This document shows, piece after piece, positions 35,928 to 39,109 of a stretch of DNA of 64,000 nt (position 1 is its first letter; the number at the start of each line of letters is the position of its first letter). Position numbers and translations under genes: made by a program. The stretch is from Candidatus Kapaibacterium sp. (GTDB taxonomy: Bacteria; Bacteroidota; Ignavibacteria; Kapaibacteriales; UBA2268). Location of the stretch: contig OY762428.1 of the NCBI GenBank assembly GCA_963665665.1, positions 960,001-1,024,000 on the forward strand, in the 5' to 3' direction. Below the pieces are notes generated by a model. That model was given only the letters and a program-made list of their open reading frames with translations, was not told where the DNA came from and made no database searches.

Positions 35928-35990
35928 TTCCCCTCGTTGAGGGGTGGCGAGCGCAGCGAGTTCCCGACAAGTCGGGACAGGCTGGGGTGG
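35928..35990. repeat. REP-like element (family C) with a nested hairpin insert
   Basis: Reverse complement of 61000-61040 except for an inserted ttcccgacaagtcgggacagg module. Confidence 0.75.
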
Positions 35991-36078
35991 ATTCTTTTTC
36001 TTAGTCTTCGGGACGTTGCGTCTTTATCCACGAGCTAAAGCACGTGGCTATTGATTTTGACGATTATAAGGCTGGAAG

Positions 36079-36169
36079 GTCATTCTGAGCACCAGCGAAG
36101 AATCCATTCTTCACACACTATCTGCGAACAAAGATGGATTCTTCGGACGCTTCGCTCCGTCAGAATGAC
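36079..36169. repeat. REP-like inverted doublet (family B)
   Basis: gtcattctgagc..gcgaagaatcc ... ggattcttcg...cagaatgac. Confidence 0.75.
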
Positions 36170-36363
36170 AACATAACACCTCATTCTTTTGCTCTGTTTA
36201 CCCGTTTTTCCACCCCAATGAACCGACCGCCAGCCTTAATTCCCCAACCTGTGGTTTCAATGAACCGGATAATTTCCTTATTTCAATACTGTTTTGAACC
36301 AGAATTCTGATGTATGGTCTAATTGCTTTGTTAGCAGGGTTTTATACTGCCTTTACCCGAAGT

Positions 36364-36707
36364 ATTGAACTACTGTTTGGCCTTATTGTAGTGAAATTTG
36401 GCCTTATTGAGGACTTGTTTAGCCTTATTGAGGTCTTGTTTGGCCTTATTGAGGACTTGTTTAGCCTTATTGAGGTCTTGTTTGGCCTTACTGAGGTCTT
36501 GTTTGGCCTTATTGAACACTTGGTTGGCTTTACTGAACACTTGGTTGATCTTACTGAACACTTGGTTGACTTTACTGAACACTTGGTTGACCTTACTGAA
36601 CACTTGGTTGACCTTACTGAGGTCTTGTTTGGCCTTATTGAACACTTGGTTGGCTTTACTGAACACTTGGTTGATCTTACTGAACACTTGGTTGACCTTA
36701 CTGAACA
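36364..36707. repeat. 21-bp tandem repeat array, left arm (16 full units plus a partial)
   Basis: Units such as attgaggtcttgtttggcctt and actgaacacttggttgacctt in exact 21-bp register. Confidence 0.95.
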
Positions 36708-37102
36708 TGTTCTTTGCCTCCGACCAAGAGTTCAATGCCTTCAAACAAGGCAGCAATGAAGCAAAACATTGCTGCAATAGCTTCAACCAAGAGTTCATTA
36801 TCTTCAAACATCGGTGCATCGATTTGGAACAAGGCATCAATAAAGCAAAACATTGCTGCAATGGCTTAGAACATCGGTGCAATGACTCCGACCAAGGCGT
36901 CAATGACTTCAACCAAGGCAGCAATGAAGCAAAATATTGCTGCATCGAATTGGAACAAGGCAGCAATGAAGCAAAATATTGCTGCATCGAATTGGAACAA
37001 GGCAGCAATAAAGCAAAACATTGCTGCATCGAATTGGAACAAGGCAGCAATAAAGCAAAACATTGCTGCAATAGGTGCAAACAAGACCTCAATGACTCCG
37101 AC
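36708..37102. repeat. 21/42-bp tandem repeat array, right arm (about 18 units), inverted relative to the left arm
   Basis: Units such as ttggaacaaggcagcaatgaa and gcaaaacattgctgcatcgaa; aaacaagacctcaat is the exact reverse complement of left-arm attgaggtcttgttt. Confidence 0.9.
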
Positions 37103-37127
37103 CCCTCCCAAACCCTCCCCGAAGGGG

Positions 37128-38483
37128 CATAAGCGCTAACTTAGTGTTTGATTTTTATATATAATTTTTTTATATTTGTAAATGGAAAAGTACAACAAGC
37201 ATATAGAAGAATGGGATGTAGTTACAACCTTACTTCCTTTGGGATGGGAATTAAAGGCTAAAGAACTCCAGGCTTTCCAACGTCGCAGGGCATTTGATTC
37301 ACCTTCTGAGCAACTTCGAGCAATACTTATGCATGTAGCAACGGGGCATTCTATGAGGGTGGTTGCTACTAAGCTTAAATATGAAAGAAATATAGATATA
37401 TCAGATGTTGCGTTATTAAAAAAAATGAGGACGTCTGCTGATTGGCTTCGCTGGATTGCATTAGGATTGATTCATAATAGGGGGATATCATTAGATTCCC
37501 CAGAATGGCTGTCGGATTTCAATGTAAGATGTATCGATGCGTCTGTTGTTACTGAGCCGGGGTCAACAGGTACTGACTGGAGACTTCATTACAGCCATAA
37601 TCTGTTCAACCTCAAGTGTGACGAATTTATTATTACCAGCCCAAAAGTCGGTGAGTCTATATCTAATTTCAAAATTAACTCTTCTGATCTTTTTTTAATT
37701 GACAGAGCATATTGCAGTTATAAGGGTATTTCAGAAATTCTCGGAAAGAAAGCAAATTTTGTTGTCAGATATAAGCATAAAGGTTTTACACTATATAATA
37801 GTAAAAATGATAAAGTTGATATTATTAAAGAATTAAAAAGTTTAAAGTTAGATCAAATATTTGACAAAATATTTTATATTTCCTCCTCCTCCTCAAAAAA
37901 TAAAAAGATTCCTGTACGTATATGTGCTATCAAAAAAAGCAAGGAGCAAGCTGAGTTATCCAGAAAGAAAGCAAAAAAGAATTTTGCTAGAAAACAACAG
38001 ACAATCAGTTCTACAGCTTTAGGACTTAATGATTATATTGTTTTGGTGACTTCTTTGATTAATGATATATCTTCTAATAATATCTTAGAATTATATAGAA
38101 TGAGATGGCAGGTTGAAATTTCATTTAAAAAACTAAAAAGTCAATTTGGCTTGGGGCATTTACCAAAAAAAGATAAAAACTCTGCACGAGCGTGGCTTTA
38201 TGCTAAGATGATCACAGCTCTCCTTACTCAGGCTATTATCGATGAAGGTGAGCGTTTTTCCCCCTGGGGCTACAGGTTTAATAAAAGAGAATGATAAAAG
38301 GAGTACATCACAATGGCGTGAAAATGTATTTGTTAAAGATATTTTATTGAAAATCATCAGTCCCGGTATTACTTTGTATCAATGTATTAACAACTGGGAT
38401 GATGTTTCTAATTGCCTAAAAGAAGGACATCGAAAAAGGCAAAGTAGTATGAATTACTTATTTTCACTAAGTTAGCGCATATG
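37128..38483 (+). mobile_element. IS4-family insertion sequence (IS186-like), complete, 1356 bp
   Basis: 19-bp terminal IRs cataagcgctaacttagtg / cactaagttagcgcatatg (1 mismatch); 11-bp flanking direct repeat ccccgaagggg at 37117-37127 and 38484-38494. Confidence 0.95.
37182..38294 (+). CDS. IS4-family DDE transposase
   Basis: IDAS, DRAY, and the IS4 YREK signature LYRMRWQVEISFKKLKS; SDVALLKK...WL and WRLH as in IS186. Confidence 0.95.
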   Translation: MEKYNKHIEEWDVVTTLLPLGWELKAKELQAFQRRRAFDSPSEQLRAILMHVATGHSMRVVATKLKYERNIDISDVALLKKMRTSADWLRWIALGLIHNRGISLDSPEWLSDFNVRCIDASVVTEPGSTGTDWRLHYSHNLFNLKCDEFIITSPKVGESISNFKINSSDLFLIDRAYCSYKGISEILGKKANFVVRYKHKGFTLYNSKNDKVDIIKELKSLKLDQIFDKIFYISSSSSKNKKIPVRICAIKKSKEQAELSRKKAKKNFARKQQTISSTALGLNDYIVLVTSLINDISSNNILELYRMRWQVEISFKKLKSQFGLGHLPKKDKNSARAWLYAKMITALLTQAIIDEGERFSPWGYRFNKRE

Positions 38484-38560
38484 CCCCGAAGGGGAGGGCT
38501 TTGAAGAAGAATAGTGCGCCAATATCCCAAACAATCGGTTCTTTGCTTTCGATCCTTCCT

Positions 38561-38762
38561 ACCTCCCCCCGACCCCCTCCTTCAGAAGGAGGGGGAGTTA
38601 ATCTTATGATATTTAACTTCTTATCCCCTCCTAATGTAGGAGGGGATTATAGGGGAGGTTTTCTTGCTTTGATTTGGACCAAGGCAGCAATGACTTCGAA
38701 TATCGGTGCTTTGCTTTCAACCCTTCCTACCTACCCCCGGCCAGATCCTTCGGAAGAAGGGA
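38561..38762. repeat. Cluster of ccctcc/ggaggg REP-like hairpins (family D) interleaved with two 21-bp array units
   Basis: cccctccttc-a-gaaggagggg, cccctccta..taggagggg; array-type ttggaccaaggcagcaatgac around 38674. Confidence 0.7.
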
Positions 38763-38763
38763 A

Positions 38764-38917
38764 AAAGCTCCGTAGGAGCGGAATTTTTGTAGATAATATT
38801 GGCATAACGAATATTCAAAGCTCCGTAGGAGCGACATCTGATATATAAATGCCGCCCCGACGGGGCTGTTGTTCATCCCGGGATCGATTTTCTACAAAAA
38901 TGTCGCGGCTACGCCGC
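38764..38917. repeat. REP/BIME-like four-hairpin element (family A)
   Basis: Two gctccgtaggagc hairpins, then gccccgacggggc and gcggctacgccgc; inverted copy of 4169-4270. Confidence 0.8.
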
Positions 38918-39109
38918 TGTCGATTTTGTCAGATATTGGGGAAAGGAATTCCTGTTTGCTGAGAAGATTCCAACCACGACATCCTCAGGCAATCGGGGTG
39001 GATTCTTTTTCTTTGCCTTCCTTATCCACGAGCTATAGCACCTAACTATTGAATTTGACGAGGGCCACCACCTCCAACGGCAGACAATCCTTTTCATCCT
39101 CACTAATAC

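Follow-up and report, generated by a model that had tools for sequence, protein, structure and literature searches.

Within the window (the whole 64,000-nt stretch that was analysed, bases 960001-1024000 of a T9SS-bearing, Bacteroidota-like genome that forms a single 5.46-Mb contig of 38.6% G+C), two opposed arrays of abutting, spacer-less 21-bp units meet at the palindrome gaacatgttc, with a conserved leader (the head) and two further repeat modules upstream, and with GC-rich hairpins, more units and a tail, split by an insertion sequence (IS), downstream (Table 1). Tandem Repeats Finder delimited the left array at 36397-36707 (period 21, 14.8 copies, 87% matches, 0% indels) and the right array at 36740-37070 (period 42, equal to two 21-mers, 7.9 copies, 73-78% matches). 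These arrays accord with the original prediction, made from the letters of the sequence, of 16 full units (36364-36699) running into the palindrome and about 18 beyond it, and higher-order periods of 63 and 168 nt fit its remark that unit variants are shuffled in blocks. Between the two arms, a repeat search recovered 11 inverted pairs (each 18-56 nt and 71-89% complementary), as expected if the arms are reverse-complement relatives, and the outermost units of the left and right arms also mirror each other. No gene lies between the arms at this locus, as had been noted, and the locus is not a CRISPR array, as had also been noted, given that its units abut with no unique spacers; a true CRISPR with a cas1-like open reading frame (ORF) is present elsewhere in the genome.

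Table 1. Parts of the repeat element and of the island around it, in positions of the window (matches are genome-wide blastn matches of at least 50 nt).
Feature	Position	Strand	Description
Module G	35972..36068	+	Repeat block found on both sides of islands; 82 matches
Module M	36078..36172	+	~95-nt long-hairpin (MITE-like) repeat adjoining the head upstream; 149 matches
Head (leader)	36173..36397	+	Conserved ~225-nt non-coding block, a decayed 21-bp array; 53 copies
Left 21-bp array	36398..36706	+	~15-16 units
Junction palindrome	36703..36712	.	Commonest junction type; every type is a short palindrome
Right array	36707..37096	+	~18-19 units; local hairpins with 8-9-bp stems every 42 bp
GC-hairpin module (42 nt), first half	37097..37127	+	Ends in the left target-duplication copy (37117-37127)
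Insertion sequence	37128..38483	+	1356 bp; foreign to the repeat element
GC-hairpin second half, more 21-bp units and tail module T	38484..38760	+	Begins with the right target-duplication copy (38484-38494)
Tail module T	38596-38668	+	84 matches
Cluster of small GC-rich hairpins with 5-bp stems (REP-like)	38767..38920	.	Closes the island
G-like second copy	~38985-39065		Position from sequence

The IS lies within the first GC hairpin, where it is bounded by an 11-bp target duplication, and its ORF (37182-38294) encodes a 370-amino-acid DDE transposase (Pfam DDE_Tnp_1, E = 1.5e-14). Seven copies of it occur in the genome, six of them at similar CTCCC-plus-C-rich sites and five of those six within islands of the repeat family described below; one contig covers exactly the IS at ~7 times the depth of its flanks. 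The uninterrupted version of the sequence that the IS splits is found at genome position 5180135, and the window element extends to ~38760. The two additional units that had been reported near 38674, beyond the IS, are thus the same element resuming on its 3' side, and they appear to be extra because the IS splits one continuous element.

To place the locus in its genome, both arms were searched against the entire contig, yielding 55 matches for the left arm and 118 for the right. In total, 931 blastn matches clustered into 55 loci, with the left arm followed by the right arm in constant relative order, and we place the family at ~53-55 copies (55 blastn clusters; 53 heads, each a blastn match of at least 50 nt). 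The arms thus recur together, a possibility raised with the original description, and the window locus is not singular. Among 42 canonical copies taken for alignment and context, the head (~225 nt) aligned almost gap-free and the modules were collinear in every copy (42 of 42), in the order G, M, head, arrays, T, G and M; on the right side, the 42-nt GC-hairpin module is followed by additional units and then by additional hairpins. At its right end, M is adjoined by the head, by other modules or by unique DNA. All 42 copies are intergenic, lying between long ORFs, and the 41 islands that were measured total ~82 kb, or ~1.5% of the genome. We conclude that the window locus is one IS-interrupted copy of a modular, non-coding, intergenic repeat that consists of a leader, tandem repeats and a tail, with a dyad-symmetric core built of 21-bp units.

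Copies of this repeat differ in length by whole 21-bp steps, with 6-20 units in the left arm, 7-84 in the right and unequal arm lengths within copies, and phase is nevertheless retained across the element. Specifically, the distance from head to junction was 13 modulo 21 in all 26 copies with the junction type of the window (42 copies searched), and the distance from head to GC hairpin was 12 modulo 21 in 31 of the 32 copies in which the hairpin was located. The 53 heads were grouped according to the three bases that open the first row of the right arm, which gave an ATG junction (the window type, with a 10-bp palindrome) for 26, a TTA junction (an imperfect palindrome) for 6, an ATA junction (a perfect palindrome of 12-16 bp) for 4, a TTG junction for 2 and an unclear junction for 1; the remaining 14 belong to a long form. 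In long forms, which were recognized at 16 loci, the arms are separated by a core of ~580 nt with 18.5% G+C, and these cores are 82-100% alike and contain nested inverted repeats around a roughly common centre.

The relationship between the two arms was evaluated by comparing the reverse complement of the left arm with the right arm, and identity was 0.586 in register versus 0.17-0.37 when shifted (30 copies). In addition, RNA folding of positions 36364-37102 returned z-scores of −10.2 (+ strand) and −9.1 (− strand) relative to 20 dinucleotide shuffles, such that cross-arm complementarity, the property on which the first description of the locus depended, exceeds both the out-of-register values and the shuffled controls. 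Such folds could indicate long structured RNAs, in which transcription would proceed from the head through both arms to the GC hairpins and generate a fold-back RNA of ~0.7-1.5 kb, and the fixed order and orientation of the modules and the terminator-like appearance of the tail hairpins on the + strand are consistent with this idea. By analogy, two other modular repeats, BrickBuilt and BOX, are transcribed, according to the reports that describe them (PMC4596501, PMC3049150). However, arms of the same copy were no closer to one another than arms taken from different copies that share a junction type (0.586 vs 0.584), a result that rejects within-copy coevolution and indicates that pairing is not upheld by compensatory change; the arms are therefore old mirror relatives, rather than partners held complementary. 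Also arguing against a structured RNA are the unequal arms, the lack of an identified promoter and the results from Rfam 15, which had no match at E values up to 1 in the window stretch and, for two long-form loci, three sub-threshold matches to microRNA families (E 0.09-0.66, far under the gathering scores). We consider long structured RNAs distinctly unlikely as the explanation of the family.

A 21-nt period is not confined to the arms. The periodicity that had been seen to decay leftward from the left array is carried by the conserved head, whose autocorrelation was 0.391 at lag 21 and 0.387 at lag 42 (median 0.26), and the core of the long forms was similarly periodic (0.517, 0.48, 0.487 and 0.465 at lags 21, 42, 63 and 84, vs ~0.37 elsewhere). 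Neither segment can code: the head consensus is closed in all six frames, and the 16 cores together contain 219-321 stops in each frame, with longest open runs of 33-55 codons. The period therefore spans four compositionally different segments, two of them unable to code, and because the stop-filled core and the head share it, we attribute it to the DNA itself and not to heptad coding. One helical turn of DNA is 10.5 bp, and 21 bp correspond to two turns.

This distinction matters for the arms, since in almost all of the 42 copies two of the six frames stay free of stops across the two arms. Translated outward from the junction, each arm yields a clean heptad (x-hydrophobic-x-Q-x-hydrophobic-N/S, with the hydrophobic residues at a/d-like positions), array ORFs had weak, generic matches to Pfam coiled-coil families (best E = 2.9e-6), and, in the ATG junction type, a GGAGG motif precedes the minus-strand ATG by 8 nt. 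One could accordingly envisage coiled-coil heptad genes, either as a single ORF across both arms or as two genes that diverge from the junction ATG, which is readable on both strands. Several lines of evidence speak against such genes. First, no homologue of either long array ORF was found among 8000 candidates scored, and none of 10 array ORFs of the locus was present in an annotation-derived protein collection in which 3 of 4 ordinary window genes were recovered, from this same contig. Second, codon log-odds per codon were −0.09 and −0.27 for the array frames, compared with +0.22 for long genes, and array codon usage was poorer than that of off-frames of real genes. Third, 62 recent single-base variants were distributed 26/16/20 over codon positions 1/2/3, with no third-position excess (the two open frames have their third codon positions in common), and stop-creating changes showed no depletion, with 2 of 62 and 3 of 61 cases observed versus 3.2 and 4.0 expected, in a test of low power; variability of the head by codon phase (0.063/0.092/0.057) likewise had no coding pattern. 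Fourth, the other junction types are without the double ATG, and in long forms no start codon lies close to the inner arm ends (in 11 of 13 long forms, the outward minus-strand ORF in the heptad frame had no start in its first 10 codons, and in the other 2 it had just a TTG at codon 10; 2 of 4 plus-strand ORFs in the right-arm heptad frame had no listed start codon at all).

What looks like protein in these frames can instead be traced to DNA. The cysteine pairs read from the right arm correspond to the return strand of the 8-9-bp-stem DNA hairpins, the same period runs through the stop-filled segments, and a sub-period of 10.5 nt matches one helical turn as well as the mean spacing of a and d residues in a heptad, which accounts for the protein-like appearance. 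Large BOX arrays also create open frames (PMC3049150). A heptad protein under purifying selection, put forward with the original prediction as the finding that could explain the periodicity away, was thus unsupported by homologues, codon usage, position-wise variation or start codons. No coding test supported a gene; we regard the array family as non-coding, and genes for coiled-coil proteins are a very improbable reading. More generally, clean heptad-like open frames can arise from a 21-bp period at the DNA level, so that such arrays can mislead gene callers as well as anyone who reads the sequence by eye.

We also considered the possibility, one of the first suggestions for this locus, that the arms are the paired ends of a cassette or mobile element that is here empty of cargo. 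In its transposon version, subterminal arrays with multiple binding sites at the two ends of a cargo-carrying element would have become abutted through cargo loss; the arms are mutually inverted, as transposon ends are, their outermost units are mirrored and 16 copies carry an insert between them. The part of this suggestion that stood is that the arms recur elsewhere and always together. The part that did not is the cargo: no gene was enclosed in any of the 42 canonical or 16 long-form copies, and the sole insert, in 16 of 16 copies, was the AT-rich, gene-free core, of identical type throughout, instead of variable cargo genes. Moreover, the tail is not an inverted copy of the head, and we know of no transposase-binding array with anything near 6-84 sites per arm, numbers that far exceed those of the arrays known to us. 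Nor was there a linked enzyme, a recombinase or nuclease having been proposed as a companion: among the families of flanking genes, no transposase, recombinase, regulator, nuclease or rep gene recurred beside copies, and DUF559, which forms one triplet of neighbours, has 5 matches in the genome and fails to track the elements. Of all the readings weighed here, abutted transposon ends are the least credible.

Signs of mobility were sought at the element as a whole, whose ends lie within other repeat modules. Neither variant of the head start had an inverted copy near the opposite end, no empty sites or target duplications of the element were found and none of 65 right ends of M was an empty M-to-tail joint; without terminal inverted repeats, target duplications or empty sites, mobility is unsupported. 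A tree of heads mixes forms and junction types, requiring 8 changes for the long form and 15 for the ATG type (starred branches force at least 7 each), which indicates that modules have been exchanged among copies and rules out an origin of the junction types as three clonal deletion lineages.

With respect to genomic context, the genes flanking the 42 copies were convergent in 19 cases, tandem in 18 and divergent in 5, and gene 3' ends accordingly made up 56 of the 84 flanks, a preference for gene 3' ends. Neighbouring families included T9SS cargo, PAS kinases, glycosyltransferases and the DUF559 triplet; at least 150 T9SS sorting domains occur in the genome. Orientation of the short forms was also structured along the chromosome, with 18 plus and 3 minus between 0 and 2.85 Mb and 4 plus and 14 minus beyond. 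The best two-break split fitted 32 of the 39 short forms and was reached in 25 of 5000 permutations. Replication was rejected as the cause of these domains, which do not coincide with the origin (~1.9 Mb) and terminus (~5.0 Mb) deduced from GC skew and gene strand, and 13 of the 39 short forms run head to tail in the direction of fork movement.

These orientation domains, together with the phasing of the element, bring in a further alternative, namely a phased protein-binding platform. Here, a single DNA-binding protein, with each 21-bp unit as a site, would coat the arms head-to-head around the dyad, and the ~53 platforms would serve to organize the chromosome, to silence or to insulate converging genes from each other. 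In its favour, the 21-nt phase is kept across head, arms and core, the conserved positions of the left unit fall into two blocks spaced by 10 nt, both arms share a conserved 9-10-nt core in mirror orientation and each junction type places a short palindrome at the dyad, perfect except in the TTA type. However, 12-14 of the 21 positions in a unit are variable and arms carry anywhere from 6 to 84 units, tandem arrays hold phase even without selection, no candidate protein was found (nor, as noted above, a regulator or nuclease gene recurring beside copies) and the family was absent from the other genomes of the family and order that were searched (see below). A protein-binding platform is, in our estimate, unlikely. 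Slightly less probable still is a more elaborate proposal in which phase, dyad and orientation domains would all be functional, either as ~53 docking platforms from whose palindromes a protein polymerizes, structuring or insulating, or as palindromic mobile DNA that copies itself by folding back. If phase and symmetry were functional, the family would be a tractable Bacteroidota example of phased DNA platforms dispersed through a genome.

The reading that we prefer, and to which we assign a probability of roughly 60%, combines inverted duplication of an array, change of arms by whole units, loss of the centre, exchange of parts and selfish or neutral persistence at gene 3' ends. Under this joint mechanism, the domain would have arisen when a tandem array of 21-bp units underwent inverted duplication, after which slippage or unequal exchange may have lengthened and shortened the arms in whole units. 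The AT-rich centre would then have been lost from most copies, possibly via hairpin or cruciform processing, leaving a symmetric palindromic joint, while gene conversion probably swapped parts between copies. The elements would persist as selfish or neutral DNA where they are least harmful, at the 3' ends of genes, with possible side effects on transcription, given that their GC hairpins resemble terminators. Several observations sit uneasily with this mechanism: 'junk' predicts neither an exact two-turn period over four differing segments nor the non-random orientation of the short forms along the chromosome; two frames run open through both arms, with clean heptads and weak coiled-coil matches; and the signs of mobility listed above were not found.

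The family can be set beside known repeats, of which the closest appear to be BrickBuilt (in Porphyromonas), BOX and the bacterial interspersed mosaic elements (BIMEs), with BrickBuilt apparently the nearest; these comparisons concern design. BIMEs and clusters of REP sequences are mosaics of small modules in a fixed grammar, with GC-rich hairpins, located at gene 3' ends and targeted by IS elements. The present family resembles them in its module mosaic and grammar, its GC-rich hairpins, its position at gene 3' ends and the IS insertion described here, whereas its 21-bp arrays are not REP hairpins. The genome has a single full match to the Y1 transposase family (Y1_Tnp), of the kind (RAYT) associated with REP sequences, flanked by small hairpins with stems that match or are near those of the window tail; the hairpin doublet beside this gene has 5 near-full copies, with 0 within 3.5 kb of the 53 heads. 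Iteron-type origins of plasmids and phages, in which direct repeats of 17-22 bp lie beside an AT-rich region, offer a second parallel in unit length (~21-22 bp), two-turn spacing, an adjoining AT-rich stretch and arrays in both orientations; they differ from the present family, which has ~53 chromosomal copies, no rep gene nearby and no plasmid or phage match.

BrickBuilt, from P. gingivalis, is a MITE that carries a minisatellite of 23-nt units between a non-repetitive leader and a tail (Klein et al. 2015, PMC4596501). Its 19 copies of 1 to ~23 units each, always intergenic and limited to one species group, cover 0.44% of the genome, no IS insertions into them were seen there and annotation pipelines sometimes call hypothetical ORFs in them (PMC4596501). 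The present family is similar in occurring in Bacteroidota, in joining a conserved leader, a spacer-less array of ~20-nt units and a tail (a likeness of architecture, not of sequence), in being dispersed in tens of copies, always intergenic, in one species group and, judging from Table 1 of that report, in having many T9SS cargo genes as neighbours. It differs in having two opposed arrays with dyad symmetry rather than a single direct array, a period of 21 rather than 23 nt, long forms with an AT-rich periodic core, ~53 copies rather than 19, ~1.5% rather than 0.44% of the genome and IS insertions, and in that terminal inverted repeats such as the IS5-like ones reported for BrickBuilt were not found here. 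The pneumococcal BOX element, with the structure boxA-(boxB)n-boxC, is likewise modular, its size being set by a variable number of inner modules, and its description adds that it is predicted to form a stem-loop, that it clusters with other small repeats and that open reading frames arise where its arrays are large (Croucher et al. 2011, PMC3049150). These features have counterparts here (a modular composite repeat, variable tandem inner modules, predicted folding, open frames in large arrays and clusters of small repeats). However, BOX has a single kind of inner module, in direct orientation, and its boxA and boxC ends complete the stem-loop, whereas the inner arrays of the present family are themselves mirrored, its head bears no relation to its tail and it belongs to another phylum. 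Relative to all of these systems, the present family differs in its mirrored arrays, dyad symmetry, periodic AT-rich centre, whole-element phase and lack of detectable terminal inverted repeats. A seemingly unique and enigmatic locus thereby becomes a member of a family with a defined anatomy, and together with BrickBuilt it suggests that minisatellite elements with a period of ~21-23 bp recur in Bacteroidota.

Finally, we asked how widely the repeat is distributed. At the family level, a search of 129 other genomes gave no true match to the repeat; the sole match was to a BatC-like TPR protein, whose low-complexity KDKQDQN repeats resemble the query by chance, and the BatC-like gene of this genome itself did not match the arms. 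At the order level, 253 other genomes contained no true relative, and five matches of 41-167 nt all fell inside the AT-rich core of the query. Among 72,556 plasmid and 50,697 phage records, no similarity to the element was found, and scans of metagenome contigs with peptide patterns recovered no relative (one match, to a YhgE/Pip-like membrane protein with a coiled coil, was unrelated). A scan with a head pattern gave 0 matches in a collection of genome contigs that may omit the window's own genome, and in the literature we found no description of this element. As judged by these similarity searches, the repeat family is apparently lineage-specific. Contigs matching the locus break at the repeats, and contig depths alone suggest that many copies are also carried under a second organism label that is ~99.5% identical and in a marine relative that is ~87-88% identical.

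Six of the seven copies of the 1,356-bp insertion sequence (IS) that interrupts the window's element (see table) lie at sites consisting of CTCCC plus a C-rich stretch or a hairpin, each with a duplication of approximately 11 bp, and five of these six are hosted by islands of the mirrored-array repeat family. On the basis of these insertion points, the GC-hairpin modules appear to be a preferred target of this IS, suggestive of target specificity. Small GC hairpins also occur as a doublet on each side of the only full Y1-transposase match, with stems the same as, or close to, those at window positions 38767-38920; the exact flanking doublet has only five near-full copies in the genome.

Along the chromosome, the orientation of the short forms, in which the two arms meet at a short palindrome, varied by domain: 18 were on the plus strand versus 3 on the minus strand within 0-2.85 Mb, compared with 4 plus versus 14 minus beyond 2.85 Mb (a permutation test equalled this arrangement in 25 of 5,000 permutations). 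Across the whole genome, these domains did not coincide with the positions to which GC skew and gene strand point for the origin and terminus. At one site, the whole element has been duplicated in tandem; at another, three DUF559 genes stand in tandem with a period of approximately 848 nt, each set apart from the next by clustered T and G modules, and the genome contains only five DUF559 matches in all.

Coordinates of the features discussed (G000:C1, the single contig of the window's own genome; L033, a locus on it; L022, a locus in the related genome G022)
Feature	Location	Details
IS, DDE_Tnp_1	window 37128-38483	1356 bp; 7 genome copies
Y1-transposase (RAYT/IS200-like)	G000:C1:1821817-1822161	only full match in genome
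Two complete elements, direct tandem	G000:C1:1774599-1777842	spacing 1396 nt; heads identical
Three DUF559 (Vsr-like endonuclease) genes, tandem	G000:C1:1354485-1356566	133 aa each, identical
BatC-like TPR protein ORF	L022 (G022:C3:108817-111933), 1342-2115	minus strand
True CRISPR array	L033, G000:C1:117500-128000	~30-nt repeats; period ~66 nt; span ~3 kb

The genome's secreted-cargo complement is unusually large, its C-terminal sorting domains of the T9SS numbering at least 150 (375 candidates), and several islands adjoin the 3' ends of sorting-domain genes. Copies of BrickBuilt, a minisatellite-bearing MITE of Porphyromonas gingivalis, likewise lie next to the 3' ends of such genes (Table 1 of PMC4596501).

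The left arm had a single cross-genome DNA match, 117 nt long at 76%, and this fell in the BatC-like ORF, where a 21/42-bp DNA repeat encodes a run of KDKQDQN heptads; we rejected this stretch as a relative of the arm, the likeness being a chance one of low complexity. Elsewhere in the window's genome, the CRISPR array is bordered by a Cas1-like ORF on one side and an IS3-type transposase ORF on the other.
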